Positions 24,317 through 44,838 of a stretch of 64,000 bases of DNA are shown here, in pieces. A program made the position numbers and the translations under genes. The stretch's first letter is position 1. The number at the start of each line of letters is the position of its first letter. The stretch lies in contig CAWGYD010000001.1 in assembly GCA_963826785.1 (NCBI GenBank), positions 288,001-352,000 of the forward strand, in the 5' to 3' direction. The notes under the pieces are model-generated. The model saw nothing but the letters and a program-made list of their open reading frames with translations. It did not search any database and was not told where the DNA came from. The DNA is from an uncultured delta proteobacterium (GTDB taxonomy: Bacteria; Desulfobacterota; Desulfobacteria; Desulfobacterales; Desulfosalsimonadaceae).

Positions 24317-24371
24317 ATCATATTCCCGATTGGACGCCCGCTGCCGGAAGGCTGCCGCATGGGGATCAATT

Positions 24372-27339: not shown

Positions 27340-28656
27340 AGCTTCTGATCGTACAGCCATCTCATTACAAAAGCCGCTCCAATCGTTCCCTGCATAAAAT
27401 GCGCAAGCGCAAGTTCATCGGTCTGACGCTGCCCTACCTGGCCGCGCTGACCCCGGACGGGTGGGAGTGCTCGCTGGTGGATGAGCAGCTGGCGGATGTC
27501 GACTTTAACGCCTCTGCGGATCTTGTCGCCATCAGCGCCTGGACCATCAACTCTTTCAGGGCGTATGAGATTGCCGACCGGTTCAGACAGCGCGGCGTGC
27601 CGGTGATCATGGGCGGGCCGCACACCTATTTCTATGCGGCGGAAGCGGCAAAACATTGCGACTCCGTGGGGATCGGCGAGGGGGAAAGCATCTGGTCCGA
27701 AATGCTCGAGGACGCGGCCCGGGGGGAGTTGAAGCCGGTCTATCGGGGGATCGAGGCCGGAGAACTCCGGAACCTCCCTTTTCCCCGCTACGATCTGCTG
27801 GATCTCAAGAAGTACGGCCTGGTCCGGACCTTCGCCCTGCAGACCTCCCGGGGATGCCCCTTCAAATGCGAATTCTGCTCTGAACGCTTCTACCTGGGCT
27901 CCGGATATCGCTATCGGCCGGTGGCGGAGGTGATCGAGGAGATCAAAAGGACCGAAGGCGCGCTATATCCTGTTCGCGGAAAGCAATTTTGCGGGGAAGA
28001 TGAGCCATACCATGGAACTCATGGAGGCCCTGATCCCGTTAAAGATCAGATGGTCGACCCTGTGGTCCGCCTACCTGTGCAAGAACCGCGAGTTCATGGA
28101 CCTGGCCCGCCAGAGCGGGCTCTTGCATGTCAACATCGGGATTGAAAGCATCGAGGGCGCCACCCTGGCGGCCATGAACAAAAAGCAGAACAAGGTGGAG
28201 GAATACCGGGAGATTTTTAAAAACCTGAGAGACCGGGGCATCAGCTATTCGGTCAATCTGCAGTTCGGCTGGGACACGGAAACACCGGACGTTTTTGCCG
28301 CCACCCTTGAATTTCTCCACAGGGAAAGGGTGCCGGTGGCCTATTTCGACATCCTGACGCCGCACCGGGGAACCACTCTGTATGAGCGGATGCAGGCCGA
28401 AGGGCGCATCATCGATGATTACAACATCGGCAGATGGCCCGGCATCAACTGCTACCTGAAACCGGCCTATTGCTCCCCCCGGGAACTGGAACAAAACGTG
28501 GCCAGTACATTCAAGACCTTTTACCAGCTCCCCTCCATCATCGCCCGCCTTCCGATCCCACTGACCAAGAGCGCCATCGCTTCATGGGTCGTCAACCTGT
28601 CCCAGTGGAAAATCACCCATGCGGGCATGGCCATGGAGAACTTCGATCATTATTGA
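27336..28656 (+). CDS. B12-binding (class B-like) radical SAM protein; frameshift near 27954
   Basis: LPYLAALTP...GVPVIMGGPH, TSRGCPFKCEFC; continues in ORF 28000-28656 (IGIES, TPHRGT). One extra base splits it. Confidence 0.85.
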
Positions 28657-29276
28657 ATCGCCTTCTGCTGGAGGCGCATCTTTTCGATCAAATTATTGAA
28701 AGACGACCCCTTGATGACCCGGTTGAAGGAGTTGCGGTACTTCCCCGTGATGCTGACCCCGTCGATGACCACGTCCCGGATTCGCCATTTCCCATCCGTT
28801 ATGGCCAGGCGGTAATCCACCGGAATCTGCTCGTTGGGCCGGAAGATGAGGGTCTTTACGATGGTTTCCCCATCGACGTTTTCCGCGGGGGAATAGCGGA
28901 TCTGCTCCTGCTTGAGAAAATCCAGGACCAGCCGGGTGTAGGCGTCCTGGAACAGGTCCTGGAAAATGGAGGTGAACTCCGCCCGCTGTTTTTCGTCGAG
29001 TTCCTGCCAGTGGTCGGAAAGGGCGCTCTTGGCCATATCGGCCATGTCGATATTCCTGGAAATGACCGCCTTGATGGCGCTTCTTCTTTCTTCCCGGTGT
29101 TCCGGCCCGGCCATTTCCGGATTGTTCTGGATGGCCATGACCGCATCGAGCATGTTTGAGACATATTCCACGGGCCCTGCGGCGGCGCACCCTGCCTGCC
29201 GGACATAAATGAGCGGAATGAGACATGCCGCGATCAAGGCAACGATTTTTCGGGCAAAACAGGGTGTGGGGCACAT
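28650..29276 (-). CDS. hpnM: MlaC/Ttg2D-family periplasmic lipid-binding protein (HpnM-like)
   Basis: Signal peptide; WRIRDVVIDGVSITGKYRNSF; directly downstream of the MMPL transporter. Confidence 0.75.
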   Translation of the reverse strand: MCPTPCFARKIVALIAACLIPLIYVRQAGCAAAGPVEYVSNMLDAVMAIQNNPEMAGPEHREERRSAIKAVISRNIDMADMAKSALSDHWQELDEKQRAEFTSIFQDLFQDAYTRLVLDFLKQEQIRYSPAENVDGETIVKTLIFRPNEQIPVDYRLAITDGKWRIRDVVIDGVSITGKYRNSFNRVIKGSSFNNLIEKMRLQQKAIQ

Positions 29277-29324
29277 ATCGACCTCCTGGGATTCAATTTT
29301 TGGTAAATTTTTCCGGTTTAACCG

Positions 29325-32045
29325 CTATTCGGGTTTCAGAAACGAGCGCAGCGCCTCCAGCAATGCGGGCAGGAAAACGACCGCGGCCACCATGATGCTC
29401 AGGCTCCCGATCATGGCCAGCAGCCCCAGGCTGTAAATTCCCTGGTGGTGCGAAATGGTCAGGCTGCCGAAACCCACCGTTGTGGTGAGTCCGGCAAGAA
29501 TCACGCCCTTGGCCGTACTGACGGGGATGGCCGTCCCTTTTTGTCCCAAAGCCCCTTCCTGCTGCCGCCGCTGGAGGATGATGATGCCGTATTCCACGCC
29601 GGCCCCGACGATCAGCGGCAGAAAGAGGCTGTTGGCCAGGTTGAAATTGACATGGAATGCGTCCATCAGCCCCACGGTCCATATGGTGCCGACGATCAGC
29701 GGCGTCATGACCAGAGCGGCCTGGATAATGTTTCGAAACGTCAACAGGAGCAGCAGGGCGATGAAAACAGCCGCATACGCGGCCGCCTTGATGGTGGCAT
29801 CGCGAAAGGCCCGGGTGAAGATGAACAGGGTGATGGGGTCCCCCACCGCATCCGGGTCCACCTTCTGGAGATCATGGACGAACCGGCCGAGAAACGCGGG
29901 CTCCCAGATATCCCCGGCAGGGAAGATCCGCATGAGATAGTCCCCCTTTTTGGAAATATAGCGTTCGAGCAGGGACCGGGGCAGGTTGTCCACCTGCATC
30001 GGTTTCGCATGGATATTCATGCGCAGGATTTCGAGCTTGTCGTTTAGATCCTGCATGAAATTGATCTCAAACCGTTTCATGGAGCCGGCCAGAAGCGCGG
30101 GGTCCATGACGGAAAAGCGCTTGCGCAAGTCATCGATCAGACTGCGCACCTGACGCATCTGGATCTCGAGGGGTTTTGCCGCCCCCCACTCGGATGCCTG
30201 GGTATCGGCCATCTTGAAGCGGATCCGGCCCAGAACCGTGTCGAGCGCCGCAAGATCGACGGGATCGGTGTTGCTTTCGAGCGGTCCGATCCCGGAAATG
30301 ACGGGTGCAAGCGCCTGCAGAAGATGGATTTTTTCCGCCTGGTGTTCCGGAAGCATGCTCAGCACGCTCTGGACCTCGGACACCGTGGGCAGGGATTCAA
30401 GTGCGCGGGTCTTGGTCCGTACTTCTTCCATGGAATTTGCCAGCATGGCGCCATACATGCTGGACCGGTCGGACCCCGATATCAGCTTCTGCTCCCAGAC
30501 GACCGATTCCGCCCCCTGGGATTGAAGGTGCAGCATGTTCAAATCATAGGAGACGTTTTTCGCCCCCCACAGGGACAGGATGAATGCCAGGGCGGAGACG
30601 AAGAGCACGATCGCGGCGCCCCGCCTTTGCATCCGGAACAGGTACCGGGGGCGGCCCGGCCCGGCTTTCACCGCCGCCGGATCGGCCTTGTCGAATACCA
30701 TCACCAGGGCGGGCAGGAGGCAAAGTGTGGTCACCGTGGTCATGATCATGCCCATGGACGTGATCTCCCCCAGTTCCACCAGCCCCTTGAATCCGGTCAG
30801 GACCAGGGGGAAAAAAGAGACCGCCGCGGTCAGGCCGGCCAGCAGGATGCTGGGACCCAGCCGGAGCATGGCGGCCCGCAGGGCCTCTTCCCTGGATTGC
30901 CCGCCCTGCTGCAGTTCTTCCTGGTAGCGGGCGAGCCAGTGAATGCCGTAGTCGATCCCCAGTCCCAGAAGCAGGGGGGCAAAGGTGATGGACAGGATGT
31001 TGAGATGGCCGATGAAAAGCGTGGTCAGGCCGAAGGTCCAGGAAAGGGCCGTTACGAGTTCGACGATCTCCAGGACCGGCCGGCGCCAGCCCCGCCAGAA
31101 GATCATGAGCAGCAGGGCAAGACCTGAAAGCGAAAGGAGCGTGGCGACGCTGATGTCATTTAAGGAGGTGCTCATTTCATCCTGGTTGAGCGCCTCCTGG
31201 CCCGTGACCCCCACCGCTACATCGGGGAAGACCTCCCGGACCTGCGCAATGGTTTCCCGGAGCCCCTTCAGGGCGCTCAACGTATCGGAAAAGCCCGCTC
31301 CGGATGATTCGGGGGTGACAAACAGGAGGAGATACCGTTTCTCCCGGGTCCAGAAATACGCATCCTCCGAGTTTTCGTCCCAGGATGCGCCGGAAAAGAA
31401 TGAATTCCAGGGAGAAATAAATTGCGAATCCCCGTCCAGCCCGCGCTTCATTTCCGTCAATGCGCCGATGACAAAACTCAGGTCCAGCGGCTCCTGTTCT
31501 TTTCCGGAAGCGGGTTCATCGAGAAACCCGGTGAAGAGTTCCCCCACCATGGCGGACGCCATCTCGTGATTGACCCCGGCAAAAAAGCGGGTCAGCGTGG
31601 GGGAAACCGCCAGGTCACGGATGAGTTGCTCGTGTTCGCGCAGGTCTTTTTTAAGGCGCACAAGCTCATCTTCATCCAGGTAGAGCAGCGCCCAGGGCTT
31701 GAACTGCTCCGGGTCGACCCGGTAGAACACCTGGCGGTAGTGCCGGGTGTCGTTTTCCAGAAGGGGTGCAAGGCTGCGCAGAAAGGTGAGGGACCGGGCC
31801 GGGTTCGGCCCCTGGATGGCGACCACGAATGTGTCGAATTCATTGAAGGCGTGAATCGATCTGGACAGCTCCACATAGCGGTTTTCCGGAGAAATCAGAT
31901 CGATCTGGCTGGTCTCGAACCCGATGTTTTCAACGGTGTAATACATGGAAAGGCCCGCCAGAACCAGCGCCGCCGCCAGTATCGGCACGGGATGCCGGAT
32001 CTGGAAATCCACCATTTTTCCGATGATCTTCAGCAGTAATCGCAT
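29325..32045 (-). CDS. hpnN: MMPL/RND hopanoid transporter HpnN-like
   Basis: Two MMPL halves (LLGLGIDYGIH; IVGAGVEYGI; TTTVGFGSL); 906 aa; hpn context. Confidence 0.8.
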   Translation of the reverse strand: MRLLLKIIGKMVDFQIRHPVPILAAALVLAGLSMYYTVENIGFETSQIDLISPENRYVELSRSIHAFNEFDTFVVAIQGPNPARSLTFLRSLAPLLENDTRHYRQVFYRVDPEQFKPWALLYLDEDELVRLKKDLREHEQLIRDLAVSPTLTRFFAGVNHEMASAMVGELFTGFLDEPASGKEQEPLDLSFVIGALTEMKRGLDGDSQFISPWNSFFSGASWDENSEDAYFWTREKRYLLLFVTPESSGAGFSDTLSALKGLRETIAQVREVFPDVAVGVTGQEALNQDEMSTSLNDISVATLLSLSGLALLLMIFWRGWRRPVLEIVELVTALSWTFGLTTLFIGHLNILSITFAPLLLGLGIDYGIHWLARYQEELQQGGQSREEALRAAMLRLGPSILLAGLTAAVSFFPLVLTGFKGLVELGEITSMGMIMTTVTTLCLLPALVMVFDKADPAAVKAGPGRPRYLFRMQRRGAAIVLFVSALAFILSLWGAKNVSYDLNMLHLQSQGAESVVWEQKLISGSDRSSMYGAMLANSMEEVRTKTRALESLPTVSEVQSVLSMLPEHQAEKIHLLQALAPVISGIGPLESNTDPVDLAALDTVLGRIRFKMADTQASEWGAAKPLEIQMRQVRSLIDDLRKRFSVMDPALLAGSMKRFEINFMQDLNDKLEILRMNIHAKPMQVDNLPRSLLERYISKKGDYLMRIFPAGDIWEPAFLGRFVHDLQKVDPDAVGDPITLFIFTRAFRDATIKAAAYAAVFIALLLLLTFRNIIQAALVMTPLIVGTIWTVGLMDAFHVNFNLANSLFLPLIVGAGVEYGIIILQRRQQEGALGQKGTAIPVSTAKGVILAGLTTTVGFGSLTISHHQGIYSLGLLAMIGSLSIMVAAVVFLPALLEALRSFLKPE

Positions 32046-32125
32046 TTTTTAATCCAGCTTTCGCATTCAGCGTATTGTCTTTGCTTCACTAACCTCACGT
32101 TCCGGCCTTAACCGCTGTTCGGCTA

Positions 32126-33027
32126 TTATTTCAAGTCCGGCATCGGCGAGCCACCGTTTTCAGCTTCTATGACAAAAATCTCAAATCCGTTCCTCATCTG
32201 CCCGTTCACGGCTTGGCGGGGACGCAAACGGAAGACTGGTCCGCTCAATGATCTTTTTGCCTGCTTTTACAGCTGATTAGCTGTTTATTTCAAGCCAGGT
32301 ATCGGCGGGCCGCCGTTTTTCGGCTTCTATGGCAAAAATCTCAAATCCGCTCCCCAGCCCCCCGTTCACGTCCCCGCCAGGAGTCGCTTTGCACAAGGTT
32401 GCCGTTTCATTTGTTTTCATAATGTATACTTCTGATTGCTGCTCATTTCGACTTGCTGGATTCCGCTTAAAATTGCCGGAATGACAAATTGTGATTGATA
32501 TCAACCCTGTTATAAAAGCGATGATGCCCTTGAGGGGTTAAAGGGAGGTGTCCCGAGGGCACCCATTGCTTCCAAAGAACTCAATTTGGCAAACAGATTA
32601 AGTGACTTCATTTTTTTGGTTATCCGCAGGTCCAACACCCCCCTTGGTCCCCCCTCGCAGGGGGGGAATAAAAAAAGGAGGCCTTCCTTGTATGGGGAAT
32701 TTGATCGTAATTTCAATTCCTAATCCCCCCTTGAGGGGGGCAGGGGGGTGTACCGACGGCGACCGTTGCGATTCAAAAGTTCCTTCCTGTAAAAACACCG
32801 CGCAGCGGGGTCGGGAGCTTTTTACTAAGAGCTGCTGGATTGCTGCGATTGACCCATGACGGGGTGGTGAACAGGGGCATGGCAAGCGAATTTGATATTT
32901 TTGCCGAAAAGCCGGGGGAGTTGATTCGCGTTAAGAATTTCTCATTGTCTGAGGGCGGATGCCCGAGTTTGAGAAATTTAGCGGATCAACTGCCCCGGCC
33001 GGCAAAAAGATCACTGAGCGGCCAGGC
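32126..33027. repeat. Composite intergenic repeat: tandem copies, a long imperfect inverted copy and REP-like hairpins
   Basis: 32126-32210 resembles 32285-32370 (direct). 32234-32370 is inverted-similar to 32867-33027. REP-like hairpins at ~32527-32552, 32635-32668, 32724-32751. Confidence 0.75.
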
Positions 33028-33118
33028 CCCTGTTCGCCATCCCGTCAGCCACCATCCCATAACCCATAAGTTAAATGACCTTCGCTAAATATATCGAAAA
33101 AAAGCCCGCTCCATTGGC

Positions 33119-34549
33119 TTACCGACTCCCGGAGTCTTTGGCATATTGCCGGATCATGCCGGTGGCGTACTTCAGGTTGGCCATTGCCACATTGTAATTG
33201 TAAAGCGCTTCGATATAGTTTCCCTGATTCTCGCCATATTTTTCAATGGCCCGGAGCATGTTTTCGGCGCTCCCGATGCCCATGTCGAAATCCGCAAACG
33301 CGGACACCACCCATTTCCTGGAAGCCACGGCCGCATCGTGATATGTTTTTGCGCTTTTCTTCCACTCGATGATTTCCTGGTATGCACTGGCCACCTGGAT
33401 GGGGATATTCATCTCGGCGGTTTTCCTGGAATAGAGAAGTTTGCTGTATTCCGCCCGGGCCTGAGCGATGCGTGCTTTTTTAATGCCGAAATCAAAATCC
33501 CATTTGGCGCCGGCCACGACTCCGGCATAGGCGTGGTTGAACTCGTCATCGATGTAGGCATTGTCCAGGTGGTCACGGCCGGGCGCCCCGGCCAGGGAGC
33601 CTTCCAGGGCCACGAAAAACGACGGGTAGAGTTCGCTGACGGCCGCGGCGGTCTGATATTCACTTGCCTTCAGGGCCGCATCGAGCTGCTTGAATTCCGG
33701 CCGGTTGGAAAGGGCATTGTGAACGAACGTATTGACATCTTCCAGTTCTCCTTTCCTGATTTCAAGCGGTTCTGCGGCGACTTCCAGGGGAGCGCCGGGG
33801 GGGAGGCCCAGCATGGCGCGCAGGGCGAACGTGGCGACTTGGACCCCTTTTTCGGCCTCGGCCTGGGAGCGGATGATGCCGGCGCGGAACGCATCGACCA
33901 TGTACAGGTCGCTCTCGCTCACGCTGGCTGCGCCGGCTTCCATGAGGCGTTTGATGCGCTGGCGGGCATCATCGAAGAACGCTTCCGCATCTTTGGCCGT
34001 TCCGATTCCCGATCGGGCGAGAATGAGCGCATAATACAGCTCGGCCACCTTCAGGGCGATTTCGTCTGCGGCTTTGTCCATCCCCAGCGCCTTGGCGGCA
34101 ACCCCGCTTTGCGCCGCCGCGCGCCCATTGGAGAGTTTACCGAAGGTATACAGGGGCTGGGTGACGGTGAAATCGAGCCGGCCGAAGACGCCGATGCTGG
34201 AGAGGCTCAAGCCCGGGGAAGGATCGTATATCCGGTTATTGACGATGACCGGTTCTTCGGCATCGTTGACCGGGCCGACCACGGCCGTGCTCTCCATCCG
34301 GGGATAGTAGGCCGCAACCACCTGATCCAGGGTACTCTGGGCCGCGGCCAGTTCACTTCTGGCCGCGCCGGCTTCCGGGCTTGCGGCAACGGCCTTTTCG
34401 ATCAGCTGCTCAAGATTCAGGCCGGCGGTTTGCTTTGCGGCTTCGGCTGCGTCCCCGCTTCTTGGCCGGAAAAGAAACATGCTGCCTGCGATAAGTCCGC
34501 ACAGAATGAAAATTCGCACAAAATGCAAATGTCCGCACTGTTTCATCAT
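33119..34549 (-). CDS. TolC-family outer-membrane efflux protein
   Basis: Signal peptide; LNLEQLIEKAVAASP, ALSNRPE, YNYNVAMANLKYATG (two OEP repeats). Confidence 0.88.
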   Translation of the reverse strand: MMKQCGHLHFVRIFILCGLIAGSMFLFRPRSGDAAEAAKQTAGLNLEQLIEKAVAASPEAGAARSELAAAQSTLDQVVAAYYPRMESTAVVGPVNDAEEPVIVNNRIYDPSPGLSLSSIGVFGRLDFTVTQPLYTFGKLSNGRAAAQSGVAAKALGMDKAADEIALKVAELYYALILARSGIGTAKDAEAFFDDARQRIKRLMEAGAASVSESDLYMVDAFRAGIIRSQAEAEKGVQVATFALRAMLGLPPGAPLEVAAEPLEIRKGELEDVNTFVHNALSNRPEFKQLDAALKASEYQTAAAVSELYPSFFVALEGSLAGAPGRDHLDNAYIDDEFNHAYAGVVAGAKWDFDFGIKKARIAQARAEYSKLLYSRKTAEMNIPIQVASAYQEIIEWKKSAKTYHDAAVASRKWVVSAFADFDMGIGSAENMLRAIEKYGENQGNYIEALYNYNVAMANLKYATGMIRQYAKDSGSR

Positions 34550-34584: not shown

Positions 34585-35568
34585 TTAGAATTGCGTCTGC
34601 CTGTTCCTTTCAACCAGCAGCGTGGCATATAAAAACAGGCCGGCACCCGCCCAGAAAACCTGCGCCAGCCGCAAGACGACGCCATATGCCAGGCCCAGCG
34701 ATGCGGAATATCCGAGGGCCTTGAAGGCGACGACCCGGATCCCCTCCAGGGCGCCGATATCGGTTGGAATGGCAAAAATGACCAGATCCATCCAGCTGCC
34801 CAGCAGCCAGATGCCCGCGGCCGAATAAAAGGAGGACTCACGGGCGAGGAGCGTCAGAAAGAGCCAGCACTGGAGAATTCCACAGGTCATGGCCGCCATG
34901 TGGAACAGGATGGCCGCGGGCAGTCCGCCCGGATGGTCCCTGTAAAAACTTTTAAGGGCCAGATCCACCCGGTTCATTTGCAGGGATGCCTTTTGAATGA
35001 TGCTTCCGCCGATCCGGCGTCTGACCATCCAGCGGATGACCATCCCCAGCCTGCCGGTTTTCTGGATCACCAGAAAAGCGATGATCCCCAATCCGATGAG
35101 GATGCTGACCGCAAACATCAGGGACCACACCCCGAAGGGAAGGGCGACATTCCACAGGATGGTGAGCGAACCGATAATGACCAGGATCAGCTGCGCCATG
35201 GCATAGGCCAGCCGCCCGACGATGACGGCGGTGGCGGCTTCCGGGCCCTTATGGGCGCCGGCAAGGAGCGTGGCCTTGGTGACCTCCCCACCCAGGGCGG
35301 CAGTGGGTGTCAGATAGCTGATGGCATTGCCGGCAAGGAAAATCCGGTAGATCTGAAAATAGGGCAGATCCCGGTAAGGGTCCGACAGGCAGTATCGCCA
35401 TCCCATGGCGAACAGGGCGCCGGACGCCCCTTCCAGCAGGAAGAAAGGGATGAGCCCCCAGCCCAGCATGGAAAGATCGCTGTAGAGTTTTCCAAACCCG
35501 ATGGACCAGATCAGCAGGACCAGGAGGAGGGCGCCCAGCAGCATGCTGACCTGGTGAAATCTTTTCAT
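34585..35568 (-). CDS. Lysylphosphatidylglycerol-synthase TM / flippase-like (UPF0104, HpnL-like) protein, copy 2
   Basis: GNAISYLTPTAALGGEVTK, IPTDIGALEG; multi-TM. Start MKRFH at 35568. Confidence 0.85.
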   Translation of the reverse strand: MKRFHQVSMLLGALLLVLLIWSIGFGKLYSDLSMLGWGLIPFFLLEGASGALFAMGWRYCLSDPYRDLPYFQIYRIFLAGNAISYLTPTAALGGEVTKATLLAGAHKGPEAATAVIVGRLAYAMAQLILVIIGSLTILWNVALPFGVWSLMFAVSILIGLGIIAFLVIQKTGRLGMVIRWMVRRRIGGSIIQKASLQMNRVDLALKSFYRDHPGGLPAAILFHMAAMTCGILQCWLFLTLLARESSFYSAAGIWLLGSWMDLVIFAIPTDIGALEGIRVVAFKALGYSASLGLAYGVVLRLAQVFWAGAGLFLYATLLVERNRQTQF

Positions 35569-36675
35569 CGGCTTTTTCCGGACTGAAAAAGCGCTCCTGT
35601 GTGCCGGCCCGTTTCGACCGGGGCGCCCCCCAGGCGATGCGACCGGTATGCAAGCTCCGTAAGATGCGTGCACCATCCGGCCTCGGTGAAATTGACGCCC
35701 CTTTTACGGGGATTTCTGACCTCCTGGTAGAAATTTTCCGCCACCGCTTTCATCCAGGCCGGGTGGTGGGACCCGGCCGAAAGGGGCGCGGGGAAATCAT
35801 ACCGGACGATAGGAGTTGCGGCCCGGGTTTCAAGGAGCAGATGGTTGTCATTGATCCGGAGGAGACCCGCATCCCCGAAGATGACGCCTTCGTTTCGCCT
35901 GCAGTCGGCGCGCCGGGTGAGGTGAAGCCGGGCCTCGGCGGTGGCAAATTGCAGGTAAAGATCGACGGTTTCTTCAATGCCGGAATCGTCTTCTACCGCA
36001 AAAGGCCATTTGCGCGCTGACAGCCGACGGAAAGTCGTCCAGGAGGGCCATGATGAGATAAATGCCGTGCCAGCCGTGGTCGAGAAGGATGCCGCCGCCG
36101 GCAGTGGCGGCGCATTGCCGCCAGTCCGAGATGCCGCCGCCCGGACCGGGCGTCCGGAAAACCGATAGCGAAACAGACTCGATATTGCCGATTTTTCCGG
36201 CCTTCACGATTTCAGCGGCTTTGATCCACAGCGGGGCATATTTCCAGTTGTTGACCACGAACAGGACCCGGTCTGCGGCATCGGCTTCCGCCCGAAGCCG
36301 GGTCAATCCCTGCCGGGAGGGGAGCAGGGGCTTTTCACAGAAAACATGGATGCCGGCCCCGCATGCCTTGCGCATCAAATCCTCGTGGAAACAGGGCGGG
36401 GCGCAGATATCCACGAAGTCCGGGCGGTCTAAAGCCATCAGGCTTTCCAGGTCGGAATGGATGACCGCTTCCGGGAGCAGGCGTTTGGCCAGCCCGACGC
36501 GTTCGGCAAGGGGCTCCACCACCGCATCGATTCGAAAACGCGGGTCTTGCAGCCAGACCGGAAGGTGGGCCTTAAGCGCCACGCCCCCGAAACCGACGAT
36601 GGCCCCGCGCAGCGGTTTGATCGAATGGGGTTTTTCAGATGGCATTTTCGAATTTTTTCTCTGTTGAGAATTCAT
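35565..36675 (-). CDS. Gfo/Idh/MocA NAD(P)-dependent oxidoreductase; frameshift at ~36000
   Basis: IVGFGGVA, HVFCEKP, GGGILLDHGWH. Removing one base from the 4-nt run at 36000-36003 continues in frame into ORF 35565-35753. Confidence 0.85.
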
Positions 36676-38019
36676 TTATGCCTTGTATGGCATCGTTCTG
36701 GCCGTAAAATCAAATACGTCATCCAGGATCTGCAGCCCTTCCTCCGCCTCCGCAAGCGTCAGGGTCAGGGGCGGATTGATCCGGAATCCGGCCTTGTAGT
36801 TCATGCAGACCATGCCCCGGGCGAGGGTTTCCAGAAAAATCTGCCGGGTGATGTCCCTGTCCAGCGGTTCCCGGGTTTTCCGGTCTTTTACCATCTCCAC
36901 CCCGATCAGGAGGCCGCGGCCGCGGACGTCTCCGATAAACTCGTATTTTTCCCGCATCCGGATAAGGCCTTGAAGCAGGTGGGCGCCGATGACCCGGGAA
37001 TTTTCCACCAGGGCGTCATTGACGATGGTCTGGATGGTTGAAAGGGCCGCCGCGCTGGCCAGGGGGTTTCCCCCGTAGCTGCTGGAAGATGAACTCGGCT
37101 TTGCAAAGGGAAGGCTCGACGTGATCTCTTGGGTGGAAATCAGGGCGCTGATGGGAAATCCGTTCCCCATTCCTTTTCCGACGGTCATGATATCCGGGCA
37201 GACGCCCGTGTGCTCGCATCCGAACATTTTCCCGGTGCGGCCGAACCCGGTGATCATTTCATCGGCAATCAAAAGCGCGCCGTGCTCGCGGGCGATCTGG
37301 GCCAGTCCGGGAAGAAATTCCGGGGGCGGGATGATGTTTCCGGCGGTTCCCTGGATGGGCTCCACGAGGATGGCCCCCAGGCTTCCGGCGGTGCTGTTCT
37401 TGATGACCTCCCGGACAAAGTCGAGGCAGTAGAGTCCGCACCCGGGGTATTGCATCTTGAATACGCATCGGTAGCAGTCCGCATAGGGGGCCAGGTGAAG
37501 ACCCGGATGCAAAACGCCCCAGTCTTTTTTAAACGGATCGCCGATGAGCCCCAGGACCCCGCCTGTTTTTCCATGGAATCCCCCCCAGAAACTCAGAACT
37601 TCGAATTTTTTCCGGGCGGATTTGGCCAGCCGGAGGGCGGCCTCCACCGCCTCTGCGCCGCCGCTGTAAAGCTGTATCCGGTTGAGGTCCGGCGGGGTCA
37701 GGGATGCGATCAGGCAGAGCAGGTCGGTCCGGCTTTCTGAGGTGAAGCTGCCCACGGTGATTTTGTCCAGCTGGTCTTTTAGCGCGGCGATATAGGCCGG
37801 ATGGGAGTGCCCCAGGCTGCACACCCCCACCCCGGCCATGAAATCAAGATAGGTGCGCCCCTCCATATCCTCCAGGTGACGGCCATCGCCCCTGCGGATC
37901 ACCAGCCGGGAAAGCTGGGCGACTTCCTGCAGCCCGGGGGAGATGAGGGCCTGTTCCTTTTGAAACAGGTATTCGGATGACTGGGGGGGAAACAGTTCCG
38001 GAAAATTATGAAATTTCAT
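36676..38019 (-). CDS. Class III PLP-dependent aminotransferase
   Basis: SGGAEAVEAALRLA, GGFHGKT, EPIQGTAG, DEMITGFGRTG, PDIMTVGKGMGNG. Confidence 0.9.
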   Translation of the reverse strand: MKFHNFPELFPPQSSEYLFQKEQALISPGLQEVAQLSRLVIRRGDGRHLEDMEGRTYLDFMAGVGVCSLGHSHPAYIAALKDQLDKITVGSFTSESRTDLLCLIASLTPPDLNRIQLYSGGAEAVEAALRLAKSARKKFEVLSFWGGFHGKTGGVLGLIGDPFKKDWGVLHPGLHLAPYADCYRCVFKMQYPGCGLYCLDFVREVIKNSTAGSLGAILVEPIQGTAGNIIPPPEFLPGLAQIAREHGALLIADEMITGFGRTGKMFGCEHTGVCPDIMTVGKGMGNGFPISALISTQEITSSLPFAKPSSSSSSYGGNPLASAAALSTIQTIVNDALVENSRVIGAHLLQGLIRMREKYEFIGDVRGRGLLIGVEMVKDRKTREPLDRDITRQIFLETLARGMVCMNYKAGFRINPPLTLTLAEAEEGLQILDDVFDFTARTMPYKA

Positions 38020-38839
38020 TGCAAACGCCTTTGCGTGCATTGTTGCGCTCAAGTTGATGGACAATCGCCCATGCGGCGGATTCCCGGCACAGGGAGAATG
38101 TCGGCCAGGCATTCAAGTCGATGAGCATCCAGGTCCCATCCGCGGCGAGAATGGCATCACCGCCATAGATATCGAGCCCCACGGCCCCGGCGGCGCTTCT
38201 GGCCGTTTCGGCCAGCTGCCCGGCCAGGGAGGTGATATCGGTTCCGGAGCCGGGCAGAAACGCCCTGAAGAAGCCGCCGGGGGCCACGCCCACGCCGTAA
38301 AATTTGGCGCAGGGGCCGTCCACGTGGGCCTGGACGAGCACATGATCGATTCCCTGCCTGCGGAAATGATCGATCGCGCAGGAGAATTCCGAACAGGAAT
38401 CGATTCTCGACACGTCACCGGGGCCTAAAGCGTGCTGATCCCCCCGCTTTATCCAGTAGCCGTATGGCTGCCTGAAAAATCCGGAAGCCTGCATGGTGCG
38501 GATGGATTCGATGCGCCCGGCCGGCATGGGGATTTCGGACCGGGAAAAGATTTCAAACAGGGACTTGCGGCAGCAGTTGCGGACGGCGGCGGGCGAGTTG
38601 AATACCGGTATGCCGGACCCGGCGGCCTGTTCGAGGACCCCGAGGCAATGCTCGGACTGGGCCATGTTCAGAATCAGATCGGCCGTTTTGATTTGGCTGC
38701 TCATCATCTCCGCGGACAGTGCAGCCGTTTTATAACCGCGGATGGAGAGGGTATATAGAACGGCATCGAGAATGGCCGCATCCTCGCGGACTTTTCCAGG
38801 AGAAAAGATCGGTTCCCTGTAGATGCCGATGATTTTCAT
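38006..38839 (-). CDS. ATP-grasp-fold protein (ITPK1/RimK-like C-terminus)
   Basis: YWIKRGD, VLVQAHVDG, KFYGVG, GLDIYGGDAIL...LIDLNAWPTF; overlaps both neighbours. Confidence 0.75.
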   Translation of the reverse strand: MKIIGIYREPIFSPGKVREDAAILDAVLYTLSIRGYKTAALSAEMMSSQIKTADLILNMAQSEHCLGVLEQAAGSGIPVFNSPAAVRNCCRKSLFEIFSRSEIPMPAGRIESIRTMQASGFFRQPYGYWIKRGDQHALGPGDVSRIDSCSEFSCAIDHFRRQGIDHVLVQAHVDGPCAKFYGVGVAPGGFFRAFLPGSGTDITSLAGQLAETARSAAGAVGLDIYGGDAILAADGTWMLIDLNAWPTFSLCRESAAWAIVHQLERNNARKGVCNEIS

Positions 38840-39549
38840 GACCGTTCACCGATTTGACGCAGATAGCGCTCCGCCCTGGCGATATCTTGCGGGTGATCCA
38901 CATCGATGGTCGTGGAAACCGGAAGACCATACAGGGGGTGGCCGCATTCGGGCAAAAGGGCCAGGAAATGGCGAAGCGCACTCAGCTCCCGGGTGCGGGA
39001 TGGGGGCACTGCGGAGAAGATTTTTGGCGAAAAGTAGTAAAATCCGGCGGTGGCATAAGGTGTTTTGCCGGCGGCCGCATCCCCCATGGCAATGATCCGG
39101 CCCCGGGGGTCGATTTCCGCCCATAAGGGTTTGTCGTCATCCGTGCAGGTGGTAAGGGCCAGCATGCCTCCGGCGCCATTCATCCGCCTGCCGGCCGCCA
39201 TCAGATTTTCCAGCGCATGGAAGGGAAATACGGCATCCACGGTCATCATCACGAAGGGGCCGCCCGACAGAAAGGGGGCCAGGGCAAGCAGGCTCTCCAT
39301 GGAGTTTTTAGTGGTCTTGACCAGCAGTTCCAGGGGAAGGGGCCATGAGCGGTTGCGGAGATATTCTGAAACCGCGGGGTGGATGTCATTTACGATGCAG
39401 GCAACGGATTCGGCGCCCAGGCGGCCGGCCGCCCGGATCAGGCGGGCGATCATCGGCTCGCCGCACAGGGGGACCAGGGGTTTGGGGATGCGGACGCCGC
39501 CCCTTGAAAGCCTTTCTCCGATTCCGGCGGCGATGATCCCCACTTTCAT
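38836..39549 (-). CDS. NTP transferase (candidate inositol-phosphate cytidylyltransferase)
   Basis: MKVGIIAAGIGERL...PKPLV, DVDHPQD; ATGA-coupled on both sides. Confidence 0.87.
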   Translation of the reverse strand: MKVGIIAAGIGERLSRGGVRIPKPLVPLCGEPMIARLIRAAGRLGAESVACIVNDIHPAVSEYLRNRSWPLPLELLVKTTKNSMESLLALAPFLSGGPFVMMTVDAVFPFHALENLMAAGRRMNGAGGMLALTTCTDDDKPLWAEIDPRGRIIAMGDAAAGKTPYATAGFYYFSPKIFSAVPPSRTRELSALRHFLALLPECGHPLYGLPVSTTIDVDHPQDIARAERYLRQIGERS

Positions 39550-40244
39550 GCCAGCACCGCCGCCAGGTCCGCCAGGCTTGAAATGCGTGCATCCGTTTGC
39601 GCGGCCAAAAGCGGTGTCCGCGGATTCGGTCCGGGAAGCCATACGGTTTTCATGCCCAGTTCCCGGGCCGGAACCATGTCCCTGTTATAGGAGTCGCCCA
39701 CGAACACTACCTTGGATGCGGGCAGCCGCAAGGCATGCAGTGCGATCTGGAAAATGCGGTGATCCGGCTTCTCCACCCCCGCGGGGACCGAATCAACGAT
39801 GACCTCAAGGGAATCCGACAACCCCGCCTCATGGCACACCACGGCCGCATTGCCGTAAAAATTGGATACCACCCCCAGCCGGCAGCACTTCTTCAACTCG
39901 TTTAGGAAAGTGGCGTTTCGCCGCAGAAACCGCTCCGATTTTGAGCAGAAGGAACGGGCCATGGCGGTTTCAGCCCCGGCTGTATCCAGGCCCAGAATCG
40001 AAAACTGCGCCCGGATGTGATAATCCACCAGGGGGCGCAGGCCCGAGCGGAGAAGGGCGGGATTTTTCTTGCAGCTGCTGCCCGCTTCATAGAAAGCGTC
40101 TTTGATCCGGGCATGCGGCAGCATCAGGCCGGCTTCTTCGTAAAGGGCGTAGAAGCGGTCGAGCCAGTGCTCCCCATCGGAATCCAGGGTGCCTCCGAAA
40201 TCAAAGAGGACGCCCTTCACCTCATGAAACTTCCCGCTGAGCAT
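39546..40244 (-). CDS. HAD-family hydrolase
   Basis: FDFGGTLD (motif I variant), VVSN, KPD, FVGDS; RBS AGAGG. Confidence 0.87.
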   Translation of the reverse strand: MLSGKFHEVKGVLFDFGGTLDSDGEHWLDRFYALYEEAGLMLPHARIKDAFYEAGSSCKKNPALLRSGLRPLVDYHIRAQFSILGLDTAGAETAMARSFCSKSERFLRRNATFLNELKKCCRLGVVSNFYGNAAVVCHEAGLSDSLEVIVDSVPAGVEKPDHRIFQIALHALRLPASKVVFVGDSYNRDMVPARELGMKTVWLPGPNPRTPLLAAQTDARISSLADLAAVLA

Positions 40245-41418
40245 GCTTTTCCTCTTGCGCCGCTGCATGGACGGGCCGTTGCGCCAACTTCCGGGGCGGA
40301 ATCACTTCTTTTACCCCCCTGTCCCTTTTGCCCAGGATGAAGGCCTCGGTCATGCGATAGGCCTCGTCATCGGTGTACTGGCGGGGGGGGTGCTTCATCA
40401 GGTAAGCCGAAGGCGCGTACAGGACGCCGCCTTCCCCCCGGTCCAGGGCCAGCTTGCAGAAACGGACCGCATCGATCACCGTTCCTGCCGAATTGGGAGA
40501 ATCCTCCACCGACAGGCGCAGTTCCAAATTCATGGGCACGTTGCCGAAAAGCGCCCCTTCCATGCGGATGAAGCAGACTTTGTTGTCCTTTTGCCAGGGC
40601 ACATAGTCGCTCGGGCCGATATGGATGTTTTCGGCTTCCAGGCGGTGCGCTGCCACCGATTGAACGGCTTCGGTCTTTGATTCCTTCTTGCTCATGAGCC
40701 GCAGACGGTTGAGCATGTTTAAAAAATCCGTATTGCCGCCCGTGTTGAGCTGGTAGGTCCGCTCCAGTTTCACCCCGCGCTTCCGGAACAGATCGGTCAG
40801 CGTGCGGTGAATGATTGTCGCTCCCATCTGGGATTTGATGTCATCGCCGATCAGCGGGATATTTTGTTCCTCAAAGCGTTTTGCCCAGGCCGGGTCACTG
40901 GCGATAAACACCGGAATATTGTTCACAAAGGCGGTGCCGGCGGCCAGGGCGCATTCCGCGTAGAAACGGGTCGCGTTTTCGGATCCCACAGGCAGATAAT
41001 TGAGCAGGATTTCAGCCCCTGATCGGACGAGGACATCGACAACTTCATCTTGATCCGGTTCGGGCAGGGCGGCCGGCAGAAAGGTGCGGTTTGCGCCATA
41101 ATCATGCATGTGCTCGGAGCAGCCGTCCAGGATACGGCCCATGCGGACCCATGTTCCGTTTGAATCGATATCGCGGCAGAAGACTTTGGTGCAGTTGGGT
41201 TCCGCAAAGACTGCTTCTGCGAGCGGCTTTCCAACCTTTCGCCGGTCGATGTCAAAGGCCGCCACCACCTCCACGGCATAGGGTTTGAATCCGCCGATGT
41301 CCCAGTGCATCAGGCCGACGGCATCCTCCGCCCGGCTGCTGCGGCAGTAATTGATCCCCTGGATCAGGGAACTGGCGCAATTTCCGATACCAACGATAGC
41401 GATTTTAATATTTTTCAT
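40222..41418 (-). CDS. ino1: myo-inositol-1(3)-phosphate synthase (MIPS)
   Basis: IAIVGIGNCASSLIQG, YLPVGS, GDDIKSQMGAT, YQLNTGGNTDFLNM, SKKESKT, EDSPNSAG. Confidence 0.96.
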   Translation of the reverse strand: MKNIKIAIVGIGNCASSLIQGINYCRSSRAEDAVGLMHWDIGGFKPYAVEVVAAFDIDRRKVGKPLAEAVFAEPNCTKVFCRDIDSNGTWVRMGRILDGCSEHMHDYGANRTFLPAALPEPDQDEVVDVLVRSGAEILLNYLPVGSENATRFYAECALAAGTAFVNNIPVFIASDPAWAKRFEEQNIPLIGDDIKSQMGATIIHRTLTDLFRKRGVKLERTYQLNTGGNTDFLNMLNRLRLMSKKESKTEAVQSVAAHRLEAENIHIGPSDYVPWQKDNKVCFIRMEGALFGNVPMNLELRLSVEDSPNSAGTVIDAVRFCKLALDRGEGGVLYAPSAYLMKHPPRQYTDDEAYRMTEAFILGKRDRGVKEVIPPRKLAQRPVHAAAQEEKHAQREVS

Positions 41419-41579: not shown

Positions 41580-42551
41580 TTACCGGAATGCATCCGCGGC
41601 CATGCCGTAAAACCGTTTAAGGCTCCAGGGCTCCTGGGCGGCCCCCCGGCAGGAATACCAGCAGCTGCCGCAGTCGGCCGCCTTGAAAAATCCGTTGCGC
41701 CACTGGCTGAAATGCCCGGCGATCCGATGATCGGAGCAGCGCTTGATCATTCCGTCGGGGGTGACCTGGAGCCAGTTTTTTCCGGCCGTGCATCCGGGGA
41801 TAAAGCGGTTTTGAAAAAACTCGGGCACCCGGTCCAGGTAATCGTCACCCGTTGTCACATTTCCCGTTTCCCTTTTCATCTGCTTTAAAGTTTCGATCAT
41901 CTTCTCAAGAGAAGAGAGTTCCGCGTCAGGGACCATGTGATGTTCATTGCCGATCCGCCAGCAGTTGTATGCGCTCAGGGATATTTTTACCCCCATGTCC
42001 GCACTTTTTTTCACGAGCTTGGGAATGTCGGCATAGTTCTCCCGCTTGATGACCACATTGAAACACAGATTGACGCCGGCCGCCCGCAGCTGCGGGACCA
42101 CGAAGAAAATCCGGTCCGTCAGGCCAGGGATCCCTCTTTCCCGGTCGTGCCGCTCGTCGGGATAATCCAGGGAGATGGACATTTCATCCAGGCCGGCCTC
42201 CCAGGCATCGAGACCCCCCTGGAAGGTCAGAAGCGATCCGTTGGTGATCAGTGAAATAAATAAAAAACCGAAGGAACTCCGCAGGGAGGCGATTAATTCC
42301 GGCAGGTCGCTCCGCAGAAAGGGCTCACCGCCGGTGATGCTCACCGACAGCGGATCCAGTGCGCGGACCACCGGGACATAATTGTTCAGTTCCGGAGGGG
42401 CCTTTTCTTTCCAGTAATCGCAGAAATCACATCGGGCGTTGCACCGCTTGGTGACCTCCAGGTTGATGTTCAAGAGGCCCCCCTTGAGCAGATACCGGAA
42501 AAATTTATATCCCCCCGCCGACATTTCCGTAAGGCTGAGTTTTCGGGACAT
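41580..42551 (-). CDS. Radical SAM protein with SPASM/twitch-type C-terminus
   Basis: CNARCDFC, TGGEP, ITNG; CTAG...TPDGMIKRC...CGSCWYSC. Confidence 0.87.
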   Translation of the reverse strand: MSRKLSLTEMSAGGYKFFRYLLKGGLLNINLEVTKRCNARCDFCDYWKEKAPPELNNYVPVVRALDPLSVSITGGEPFLRSDLPELIASLRSSFGFLFISLITNGSLLTFQGGLDAWEAGLDEMSISLDYPDERHDRERGIPGLTDRIFFVVPQLRAAGVNLCFNVVIKRENYADIPKLVKKSADMGVKISLSAYNCWRIGNEHHMVPDAELSSLEKMIETLKQMKRETGNVTTGDDYLDRVPEFFQNRFIPGCTAGKNWLQVTPDGMIKRCSDHRIAGHFSQWRNGFFKAADCGSCWYSCRGAAQEPWSLKRFYGMAADAFR

Positions 42552-42566
42552 CTGATACTCCCTTTG

Positions 42567-43570
42567 CTAATTGTCTTTCAATGAGGGCTCCTCCGAGAGA
42601 TTGCGCCCGCTTTCGGCCAGAAGCGCCCAGTAGATGAAAAGCCCGATGCCGGCCCAGAAGATCTGCTCCACCCGAAGGGTCACCCCGTAGCTCAACCCGA
42701 TGGCCGATCCAAATCCCAGCAGCGTAAACACGATCACCCGGCTGGCTTCCAGGACCCCCAGATTCATGGGAATGGGAAAACTCAGCAGGTCCAGCCATGA
42801 GCCGAGAAACCACACCCCCGCCGCCAGGTTCGGGGAAGAACTGCCGGTGAGCAGGTAGAGAAAATACCAGCTCTGCAGGATGCCGCACGTCATCCCGAGA
42901 ATATGCCAGATCATGGACAGGAAAAGATCATAGGGATGCTCCCGGTAGAAAAGTTTCAGCGCGGCGTCCACTCGGGTTAACCCGTCCGCCGATTTTCGCA
43001 GGGTTTTCCCCCCGATCCGGTGGGCGGCCATCCACCGGACCAGCGCCCCCAGGCGGCCGTATTTCTGGACGGCGAGAAACCCGAGAATGCCGGCTCCCAA
43101 AAACACGCTGCCGGTGAGCATGGCCGCCCAGACCCCCGCGGGCAGCTGGACCCGCCACAGGATGATCAGGGATCCCGCCCCCACAAAAAGCAGTTTGGAC
43201 ATGGCGTATGAAAGCTTTCCGATGATCACGCCGGTGACGGCTTCGGGTCCTGAATGATTGAGCGCCAGAAGCGTGCCCTTGACCACCTCACCACCCAGGT
43301 CCGCGGTGGGGGTCAGGTAGCTGATGGACCCTCCCGCCAGCCGGATGCTGAAAATCCGGGAAATGGACAAGTCCCTGTGGGGACCGGAAAGGCAGTGCCG
43401 CCAACCAACGCGTGAAAGAGCTCCGCCAGGCCTTCTATGATGATCAGGGGGACAAGTCCCCATCCCAGAATCGAAAGCTCCCGCAAAAGTTCCCCGGGGC
43501 CGATCGTCCAGATCAGGGCCATCAGGAGAAAAACCCCGATGAGGATGGCCAAAACATGAAATCGCTTCAC
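42567..43570 (-). CDS. Flippase-like (UPF0104/HpnL-like) protein, copy 1; frameshift at ~43406
   Basis: N-terminus in ORF 43313-43570 (MKRFHVL), remainder in 42567-43592. One added G restores HALGWRHCLS, matching the paralog's FAMGWRYCLS. Confidence 0.83.
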
Positions 43571-44838
43571 CCGGCTTCCCCTGCGGCTTCAACGGCCATG
43601 TCGCCCTGCCTGCGGTGCTGGTACAAACGCATTCCGTGCGCTGCGGCCGTCAGGGCGGCCCATGCGGCGGCAATGCCAAGCGTGTGAACGGGAAACCCGA
43701 GCGAAAATCCGATGATGAACATGAAAATGTAGATGTTTCGCCTTCCCGCGATCCGCCTGAATCTGGCATCGAAGGGGCTGAAAAGATCGATGCTTTTCCC
43801 GAACCACTTCTGGGCCAGCGTGTAAAAAACGTTATCCGCCGTATCGGAGAGGATCAGCAGCCCCGCCAGCAGGGGCGGCCCAATCCCCATCGGGGAGAGC
43901 CCGGCGCCCAGGGCCGCGTACAGGCTGTTTTCGCAGAAATAATCGATGAGCGACTCCTGCTCGCCGATCCGGGTGAAATACAGCTTGGTGCGCGCCAGTT
44001 TGCCGTCCACGCCGTCAAGGATCTGCAGCGCGAAAGCGCAGAATGCGCCGGATAGATAGAATCCGTGATAAAAAAGCCACGCCGCGGTGCCCGCAGCAAA
44101 GATGCCGAAAAGGGTCACCATGTTCGGCGTGACAGGCGTGTTTAACAGCAGAAGCGTCAGAAAATTTTCAAACGGCGGATCGATGAATTCGGCGGGCAGG
44201 TCCATTACTTGTTTCTGCTGGCTGGCGATCAGCACCCGGGTGGCGTGCCGGGCCTGTTCCTTTGAGTGCACCTCCATGAAATAGGGGGGCTGGGGCCCGC
44301 GGATGTCGGCGTTGAAGGGATCGATCATCTCCGGATAGAGCGCGTCCACTGATCCGGCTATGCCGCCGGGGCCCTGTTTGCACAGGCGCTGAAAATCCGC
44401 CCTTTTGAAAAACCCCGCCCGGACTGTCGACGATTTGCGATCAGACGGGCTGATGCAGGCGACCACCGAAATCGGGGCGCGCAAGAGATGTTCAAAAATC
44501 CTTGGGTCAAACAGATGCGCCGCGTCGACGTACAGAAAATTTTCGGCCAGATGGGAAAACGGGCCCATGGCGGCCCAGATGTCCTTTTCGACGATGATCG
44601 GCCACAGGCGCAGGCCCCCCACCCATCTTTCAAACCCGCCCAGGTCCTTTTCGCCATCGACCAACAGGTATCCCTCTTTCAATCCCAATGCCCTGAGATG
44701 ATAGAGGGTTCTTATGACAAGGGGAATGCCGCCCACGCTTTCCCAGGCCCCGGGCCGGCCGGCATTAATGAACATCAGGGGCCGCATTGGGCCTTTAAGA
44801 TCCTTTGCATGCGGATCTGGTTTTTCCGTAACTGACAT
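43567..44838 (-). CDS. Second CDP-alcohol phosphotransferase with N-terminal NTP-transferase-like domain
   Basis: VGGIPLVIRTL; TPVTPNMVT; DGVDGKLARTKLYFTRIGEQESLID. Confidence 0.85.
   Translation of the reverse strand: MSVTEKPDPHAKDLKGPMRPLMFINAGRPGAWESVGGIPLVIRTLYHLRALGLKEGYLLVDGEKDLGGFERWVGGLRLWPIIVEKDIWAAMGPFSHLAENFLYVDAAHLFDPRIFEHLLRAPISVVACISPSDRKSSTVRAGFFKRADFQRLCKQGPGGIAGSVDALYPEMIDPFNADIRGPQPPYFMEVHSKEQARHATRVLIASQQKQVMDLPAEFIDPPFENFLTLLLLNTPVTPNMVTLFGIFAAGTAAWLFYHGFYLSGAFCAFALQILDGVDGKLARTKLYFTRIGEQESLIDYFCENSLYAALGAGLSPMGIGPPLLAGLLILSDTADNVFYTLAQKWFGKSIDLFSPFDARFRRIAGRRNIYIFMFIIGFSLGFPVHTLGIAAAWAALTAAAHGMRLYQHRRQGDMAVEAAGEAG

Follow-up and report, generated by a model that had tools for sequence, protein, structure and literature searches.

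A described system close to the gene cluster considered here is the 'putative alternative inositol lipid cluster' of Phocaeicola vulgatus and Prevotella, whose enzymes are unconfirmed (Heaver 2022; PMC9246714, accessible sections). It comprises myo-inositol-3-phosphate synthase (MIPS), an NTP transferase (BVU_RS13095), a CDP-alcohol transferase (BVU_RS13105), a HAD protein (BVU_RS13115), which the paper gives a role in ceramide transfer, and an LPG-synthase homologue. PI-dihydroceramide (inositol-phosphodihydroceramide) was shown by mass spectrometry in B. vulgatus and P. veroralis, both of which have this cluster type. The word 'ATP-grasp' has 0 occurrences in the main text, which names no ATP-grasp gene or kinase, and the accessible text of the study's preprint has 0 mentions of kinase, RimK or ligase. 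The stretch of DNA analysed here (64,000 nucleotides, called the window), from contig CAWGYD010000001.1 of an uncultured Desulfobacterota bacterium, encodes a 277-residue ATP-grasp protein, P0001. MIPS, NTP transferase, CDP-alcohol transferase and HAD of the alternative cluster are all four present in the window and in the Bacteroidales genomes that carry relatives of P0001. We propose, with a probability of about 0.55, that the protein is an ATP-dependent, single-step kinase for the cyclitol head group in a CDP-inositol lipid route. The proposal draws on the fold, the residue pattern, gene linkage, gene fusions and co-occurrence with MIPS, from which we infer the kinase chemistry, substrate, ring position, order of steps and lipid product.

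The AlphaFold model of P0001, built on 117 sequences (mean pLDDT 92.5), has an ATP-grasp fold with a pre-ATP-grasp domain, and a fold search with it gave Z 22.9 to ArgX (root-mean-square deviation (rmsd) 2.5, 250 residues aligned). In a single-sequence search 374 of 2587 candidates matched, and in a profile search 541 representatives at 50% identity did (E up to 1e-30). At least 579 of 599 pattern matches in GTDB genomes were confirmed, and the best 80 of these supply the loci counted below, which come from Syntrophobacteraceae, Binatia, Verrucomicrobiota, Bacteroidota, Elusimicrobiota and others. The one match of a viral motif scan was without any ATP-grasp open reading frame (ORF). Source databases label members 'hypothetical' or 'RimK-type ligase-like', the latter coming from JGI for many. 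P0001 matched no Pfam or NCBIfam family over its cut-off (PF08443 13.7 bits, cut-off 21; PF05770 none; TIGR00768 not listed) and found no match in a single-sequence search of the PDB. No description of the family was found in the literature searched, which was mostly listings and abstracts, with subscription papers, including the 2009 Iyer ATP-grasp survey, outside the search.

R91 (740/743), K131 (745/746), K179 (747/748) and D228 (741/742) are near-invariant in the family alignment (767 rows, with counts over the rows filled at each column). The first-pass annotation had noted a C-terminus with D-x-N instead of the E-x-N of ligases and likened it to the motif of ITPK1. The D-x-N is indeed present: GLDIYGGDAIL lies at residues 221-231 and LIDLNAWPTF at 239-248, which gives D241-x-N243, with D241 kept in 741/742 rows and N243 in 742/742. 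Downstream of it the residues are W-P-S/T here and F-P-G in ITPK. The residue set of the ATP-grasp superfamily given in the accessible text of PMC4431377 (linker basic residue, strand-2 lysine, aspartate and acid-x-N) is present in the family. Further conserved residues are peculiar to it (R8, S13, D20, R132, D134, D142, D244 and R252). With its ATP and metal residues near-invariant, a reading as a pseudo-enzyme was rejected.

Kinase and ligase signatures were compared in a joint alignment with eukaryotic ITPKs, gathered from metagenomes by motif and in three cases confirmed by PF05770, and with RimK/LysX/GshB-type proteins gathered from genomes. Columns 91/179/241 read R/K/D in 18/18 family rows and in 12/12 eukaryotic ITPKs, against K/R/E in 12/12 RimK/LysX/GshB-type rows; D241 is in the ITPK set by selection, R91 and K179 are not. 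An arginine in the strand of position 179 marks a large clade holding most amide ligases (Burroughs 2015; PMC4431377, accessible text). This amide-ligase arginine is absent from the family, which has K at column 179, and profile alignments found no RimK 'FRSN' loop in it. The most conserved inositol-phosphate contacts of human ITPK1 are H167, K199 and R212 (Desfougeres 2019; PMC6900528, accessible text). K179 aligns to K199 in three alignments, and the family has both this lysine and D-x-N; in addition its KFY aligns to the KFY of AtITPK4, and H136 aligns to the H162 position of ITPK. Other ITPK substrate contacts are not kept: in sequence-profile alignment to the metagenomic ITPKs, with human numbering transferred by motif, the K59 column was M in 733/748 rows (M59), the H167 position was D in 741/747 (D142), the R212 strand was without arginine and the G301 position was S247. 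The R2K clade (CDC123) is marked by loss of the linker basic residue and a kept ExR arginine (PMC4431377). The family instead keeps R91 and has K as the strand residue, though R132 follows K131. Columns conserved at 75% or more hold 7 basic and 6 acidic residues, and the conserved residues would suit a polyol with one or no phosphate better than InsP3-InsP5.

Coupling of the gene to MIPS, HAD and NTP transferase genes, also put forward in the first-pass annotation, is real, with overlapping genes and neighbours supported by Pfam/NCBIfam. The minus-strand order in the window is MIPS, HAD, NTP transferase, ATP-grasp, aminotransferase, dehydrogenase and LPG_synthase_TM, then TolC, HpnN-like and HpnM-like genes. 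The ATP-grasp gene overlaps at its start with the stop of the NTP transferase (38836-38839) and at its end with the probable start of the aminotransferase (38019). The same partners recur among the 80 loci (up to 8 kb of flank on each side, many cut by contig ends; profiles built from first-pass matches): NTP transferase in 76, HAD in 74, CDP-alcohol transferase in 65, aminotransferase in 51, dehydrogenase in 35, LPG-synthase homologue in 23 and MIPS in 19. Divided by record title, the loci comprise 22 from Bacteroidota, with HAD in 22, NTP transferase in 20, CDP-alcohol transferase in 20, MIPS in 12 and aminotransferase in 0, and 58 others. The CDP-alcohol transferase lies within 1.5 kb of the ATP-grasp gene in 27/27 Bacteroidales loci. 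Fusions were frequent among 12 long matches scanned (7 NTP-ATPgrasp, 1 HAD-NTP-ATPgrasp and 1 ATPgrasp-CDP). Both domains were present in 120/120 homologues listed for one fusion, a query itself fused, and 3 of these also matched the CDP-transferase. JGI labels some fusions 'choline kinase', which is the name of a nucleotidyltransferase COG, and the label was not used. Of the 45 largest neighbour clusters at the 80 loci, none was a further conserved kinase.

The arrangement can be matched to the published cluster. At a Phocaeicola locus (L071) the order is NTP transferase, ATP-grasp, CDP-transferase, LPG and HAD, which fits the spacing of the BVU tags, and from this spacing BVU_RS13100 is probably the ATP-grasp family gene; no mention of BVU_RS13100 was found in the literature searched. 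One family member is in P. barnesiae, which the accessible supplement of PMC9246714 lists with the cluster. P. vulgatus is not named among the cluster members listed, and Tannerella is represented among the members listed by one fusion from a 'Tannerella sp.' metagenome-assembled genome.

MIPS was inside the stored flank (at most 8 kb) at only 19/80 loci, against 76 for NTP transferase and 74 for HAD. Full-length family members (E 3.6e-74 or better) were found in 27 of 201 Bacteroidales genomes, and 8 further genomes had weak matches only, the three looked at being RimK-like. MIPS is present in 26/27 of these carriers and in 6/174 non-carriers, and 5/6 non-carriers with MIPS have a match to the BT_1523-type phosphatidylinositol phosphate (PIP) synthase. 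Within the window's phylum, 16/201 genomes are carriers, and 15/16 have MIPS against a background of 126/201. All ten further carrier genomes without MIPS at the locus have it elsewhere (10/10). Fisher tests give p 7e-26 and 0.006, both of which overstate the association because the genomes are kin and the genes linked. Co-occurrence with MIPS, the R/K/D columns and the failure of the aminotransferase-based alternative in Bacteroidota together make a kinase acting on inositol or an inositol phosphate the best supported reading, and to this extent the earlier suggestion of a bacterial inositol-phosphate kinase stands.

The two carriers without detected MIPS (G105 and G374) are incomplete assemblies. 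The G105 cluster (locus L283 on contig C207, 10032-13236) consists of an intact NTP-ATPgrasp fusion, a CDP-transferase and a HAD, no MIPS was found in the genome, and the organism is possibly an inositol scavenger. A shikimate kinase adjoining this cluster is the only copy in that genome and was set aside as housekeeping. The window's own genome has a second, divergent MIPS (locus L291 on contig C8, 8778-9959), adjoining sugar-isomerase-like and methyltransferase-like ORFs.

The proposed route has four enzymes, an isomerase, a kinase, a phosphatase and a nucleotidyltransferase. MIPS yields D-inositol 3-phosphate (Ins3P). A single phosphate would be added by the ATP-grasp enzyme, with D-1 as the likeliest position, and the HAD would take off the 3-phosphate, in either order. 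A D-1 kinase and a D-3 phosphatase would together yield D-Ins1P, from which the NTP transferase would make CDP-inositol, and the CDP-alcohol transferase would then move the inositol phosphate to a ceramide or glycerolipid, leaving a D-1-linked head group. Head groups linked in this way are the product of PIP-synthase routes. The switch from D-3 to D-1 fits the way in which this cluster and the BT_1523 route nearly complement each other across genomes with MIPS, and also the fusion order HAD-NTP-ATPgrasp-CDP. At loci with the dehydrogenase and aminotransferase, the window included, an amino-inositol may follow the same route. The order Ins3P to Ins(1,3)P2 to Ins1P is offered tentatively; it fits the requirement of ITPK for a phosphorylated substrate and the conserved arginines of the family. 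The order Ins3P to inositol to Ins1P is slightly less likely. It fits the IolG-like dehydrogenase and, if T. forsythia has the family, the use of outside inositol by that species, for which the accessible text of PMC4587543 gives no kinase candidate; the two carriers without detected MIPS weigh slightly for it. Against it, recombinant ITPK1 uses I(3)P1 and not free inositol (PMC6900528).

Several observations weigh against a head-group kinase of this kind. In Rhodothermus the MIPS product enters the CDP-inositol route directly and no kinase takes part (PMC4587543, accessible text). Given this direct route, the presence of a kinase and a phosphatase calls for an explanation, of which a change of ring position is the simplest, and the need for a D-3 to D-1 switch would itself depend on an assumed lipid stereochemistry. 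A BT_1523-type match, under cut-off, is found in 4/27 Bacteroidales carriers, so exclusion between the two routes is incomplete. CDC123, a predicted ligase, likewise carries D-x-N (PMC4431377). A lysine in the strand of K179 is also a feature of TupA-type enzymes.

Overall likeness of fold and profile points the same way. The P0001 model is nearer to RimK, ArgX and LysX (Z 21.7-23.4, rmsd 2.5-2.8) than to the ITPKs listed (Z 16.2-18.5; human ITPK1 Z 18.5, rmsd 3.5, 250 aligned), although the long inserts of ITPK may lower its structural score; PPIP5K2 lies at Z 19.0-19.7. The top Foldseek ranks, among the matches listed, are all ligases (RimK, ArgX, LysX and Ddl), and profile-profile comparison gave E 4.6e-21 to the RimK set versus 4.6e-9 to eukaryotic ITPK. 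A profile search of the PDB ranked PsnB, a ligase, first (2.6e-8), followed by AtITPK4 (3.3e-7), RimK (3.7e-6) and human ITPK1 (1.5e-4). The family falls below the cut-offs of both reference profiles. For TIGR00768 the best score was 31.5 bits, from a Phocaeicola member, against a cut-off of 143.4. For PF05770 (cut-off 23 bits), P0001 gave no match, 2/117 members matched at E 0.077 and P0231 scored 17.6 bits, while three positive controls (L117, L155 and L184) scored 117-236 bits; elsewhere in the window's genome PF05770 matched another ORF, RimK-like, again below the cut-off. All family rows of a 55-row tree group together (100/100) and are not nested within the ligase set (93/90, unstarred). 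Their join with ITPK has a support of 85/52 and is flagged for long branches, and a topology that unites them with the RimK set could not be rejected (p-AU 0.23). The tree leaves out 8/20 ITPK frames, 108/126 family rows and 8/20 RimK-search frames, of which 5 are not ATP-grasp frames and 3 are close to rows kept. Family clusters in the Atlas have no common Pfam family, and the named clusters near them are those of RimK (0.96-0.97) and those of PF05770 from Asgard archaea and actinobacteria (0.95), values that serve as a lead only. Membership of ITPK fails on its defining features.

Among the alternatives, a different phosphoryl transfer is improbable: a kinase for lipid- or CDP-linked inositol, an ADP/ATP phosphotransferase or mutase, or an enzyme for a di-inositol-phosphate-type solute or a hopanoid head group. 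Points in its favour are the catalytic flexibility of ITPK1, which can remove a 1-phosphate (PMC6900528), the weak likeness of the CDP-transferases to IPCT/DIPPS, and the hpnJ, HpnN and HpnM genes adjoining the window cluster. The hpn genes, however, are at a minority of loci (HpnJ at 7/80), while other loci adjoin serine palmitoyltransferase-like (9) and GNAT (8) genes. The accessible peer-review file of PMC9246714 reports no PIP-DAG in five cluster carriers, a weak point, as wild-type B. thetaiotaomicron was also negative.

A head-group-decorating ligase of carboxylate-amine (or ester) type, which might for instance join an amino acid or acid to inosamine, is also unlikely. The fold and profile matches to RimK, ArgX, LysX, Ddl and PsnB given above speak for a ligase, as does the JGI label on many members, and the aminotransferase follows the ATP-grasp gene in 51/58 non-Bacteroidota loci. 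One genome (G282) has two paralogues, one with aminotransferase and dehydrogenase and the other with HAD and NTP transferase. The first-pass annotation had named amide ligation onto the amine made by the adjacent aminotransferase as its alternative. The absence of that gene from the Bacteroidota loci (0/22) argues against this, since the active-site columns are the same there. No orthologue was found in 9 Bacteroidales carrier genomes either (0/9, best matches of only 30-39% identity), while a positive control, a Verrucomicrobia genome, returned one at 53% (E 1e-137). The missing amide-ligase arginine and FRSN loop count further against a ligase, and cluster carriers are reported to make plain PI-dihydroceramides (PMC9246714).

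Least likely is a true ITPK1 equivalent that phosphorylates Ins3P several times over, giving soluble InsP3-InsP6 for signalling or phosphate storage, a reading that has in its favour the shared R/K/D columns, H136 at the H162 position, the Atlas lead to Asgard PF05770 clusters, and the reports that ITPK1 takes I(3)P1 to IP5 and that Lokiarchaeum ITPK genes flank MIPS genes (PMC6900528), and against it the unmatched PF05770, the fold nearer to RimK/LysX, the loss of K59, H167 and the R212-strand arginine, a conserved set of 7 basic and 6 acidic columns that does not suggest a polybasic pocket, and a CDP and lipid context in which the constant link or fusion to a nucleotidyltransferase points to a monophosphate product.

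Separately, a second bacterial ATP-grasp family was found on metagenome contigs, often as tandem pairs or triplets (members at L116, L119, L122, L125, L128, L129, L138, L158, L164, L168, L172, L187 and L188). Its profile is the one nearest to that of the P0001 family (E 3.5e-27); it keeps K59 in 13/13 together with K199 and DINxFPG, and 4/4 members tested pass the PF05770 cut-off. Genes nearby encode, among others, an APH-family kinase, an NAD epimerase and transporters. As a candidate for a true bacterial ITPK cascade, this second family is preferable to the window protein.

The features of the window cluster, which is bracketed by two CDP-alcohol phosphotransferases, are collected in Table 1.

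Table 1. Genes in and around the ATP-grasp cluster (positions in the 64,000-nucleotide window)
Feature	Position	Strand	Family matches and recurrence
ATP-grasp protein P0001, unnamed family; proposed inositol or inositol-phosphate head-group kinase	38006..38839	-	
NTP transferase, probable start 39549; proposed CTP:inositol-phosphate cytidylyltransferase	38836..39642	-	PF12804/PF00483
HAD-IA hydrolase; proposed inositol-phosphate 3-phosphatase, the substrate being inferred	39546..40268	-	PF00702; TIGR01509/TIGR01549 over cut-off
MIPS	40222..41418	-	PF01658 E 4.5e-36; TIGR03450 E 2e-124 but under its cut-off
Class III aminotransferase, probable start 38019; proposed inosose-to-inosamine step; lineage-restricted add-on	36676..38112	-	PF00202
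Gfo/Idh/MocA dehydrogenase, IolG-like; frameshift near 36000	35974..36675	-	Pfam/NCBIfam
LPG_synthase_TM / HpnL-like membrane protein	34585..35676	-	PF03706
LPG_synthase_TM / HpnL-like membrane protein no. 2; 55% identity to copy at 34585..35676	42567..43592	-	Family scans
CDP-alcohol phosphotransferase	43567..44838	-	PF01066; weak IPCT/DIPPS match
CDP-alcohol phosphotransferase; orthologues recur next to ATP-grasp gene in relatives	26095..27339	+	Family scans
Radical SAM protein, between MIPS and LPG/CDP genes	41580..42551	-	PF04055; in 4/80 loci
TolC, HpnN-like MMPL and HpnM/MlaC-like genes, downstream	28650..34549	-	TolC 6/80, HpnN 6/80, HpnM 9/80 loci

The TolC, HpnN-like and HpnM-like genes probably serve lipid export and accompany the cluster in close relatives only. 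A plausible C-terminal part of the dehydrogenase continues in another frame past the frameshift, and a frameshift likewise splits a B12 radical SAM gene (27336-28656), by assembly error or as a pseudogene. hpnJ, over cut-off, and two ORFs after it that we take to be hpnI- and hpnK-like together adjoin the cluster (22323-25847), and HpnJ is next to the HAD in 7/80 loci. Promoter and terminator scans gave signals no better than shuffled sequence.

Other loci vary the arrangement. A hybrid cluster (L285, 6514-12700) combines NTP transferase, ATP-grasp, GtrA-like, BT_1523-type PIP synthase, CDP-transferase and HAD genes, and also holds a BT_1522-type PI-dihydroceramide synthase over cut-off. The two paralogues of G282 stand in tandem modules (L292, contig C8), LPG-HAD-NTP-ATPgrasp and CDP-ATPgrasp-aminotransferase-dehydrogenase-CDP. 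A GmhB-like HAD-IIIA phosphatase follows the aminotransferase at L026 (7987-8481) and 21 other Binatia-type loci. The serine palmitoyltransferase-like and GNAT genes mentioned above lie near the cluster in Verrucomicrobia and Bacteroidales, under family cut-offs (for example L050, 11096-12466, and L054, 568-1737), and suggest a ceramide acceptor. The sole match of the serine palmitoyltransferase-like query in the window is only 33% identical.

The published, unconfirmed scheme of the gut Bacteroidota cluster leaves a conserved and often fused ATP-grasp gene without a role; a kinase would complete a pathway, reassign the HAD and add bacteria to the eukaryotes and Asgard archaea that have ATP-grasp inositol kinases. 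PMC4587543, in its accessible text, could not identify a bacterial inositol kinase, and the protein would be a candidate for that role if its substrate were free inositol. Taken furthest, and as a tentative idea, the family would stand next to ITPK and PPIP5K as a third line of ATP-grasp inositol kinases, and the first bacterial one: an Ins3P 1-kinase working through soluble Ins(1,3)P2 towards D-1-linked sphingolipids. Gut Phocaeicola and Prevotella and many environmental bacteria would then build eukaryote-type inositol sphingolipids by a kinase-phosphatase switch, with lipid head-group synthesis a candidate ancestral role of ITPK-type chemistry. The version with an aminotransferase predicts amino-inositol lipids in Desulfobacterota-type, Binatia and Verrucomicrobia genomes; Desulfoferrobacter suflitae (locus L002) is a carrier of this version that has been cultured.

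Set beside known systems, the family shares with ITPK (PF05770; PDB 2qb5, 1z2n, 8oxe and 7pup; Asgard LcIKA-D) the ATP-grasp fold, the KFY and DxNxxP motifs, the linkage to MIPS and residues matching at R91, K131, K179, D228 and D241-x-N243. It differs in falling under the Pfam cut-off, in being without the long insert after the KFY strand and in being tied to CDP activation and lipid transfer. The RimK/LysX/ArgX ligases (TIGR00768; PDB 7qys, 4iwx and 3vpb) have the closest fold (Z 22-23), a similar size and a better profile match than ITPK, but in the family their ligase arginine is K, their E-x-N is D-x-N, their linker lysine is arginine, and the FRSN and G-x-x-G-x-G loops are absent. By analogy only, the layout and the kinase-nucleotidyltransferase fusion resemble the NDP-heptose pathway (GmhA, HldE/HddA, GmhB and HddC), which also runs through isomerase, kinase, HAD phosphatase and nucleotidyltransferase, with a different kinase fold and substrate. 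The CDP-inositol pathways of IPCT/DIPPS and IPCT/BEPIS likewise have MIPS, a cytidylyltransferase and a CDP-alcohol transferase, but use L-myo-inositol 1-phosphate directly, with no kinase or HAD step (PMC4587543, accessible text), and the window proteins are far under the cut-off of NF041135. The alternative cluster of PMC9246714 has the same core genes; as read here it differs from its published scheme in the ATP-grasp gene between the NTP and CDP genes and in the HAD, read here as a putative inositol-phosphate phosphatase, and the window version has in addition the aminotransferase and dehydrogenase. Most likely, then, the protein works like an ATP-grasp inositol kinase, yet outside ITPK, and is an unnoticed part of a published, unconfirmed inositol lipid cluster.

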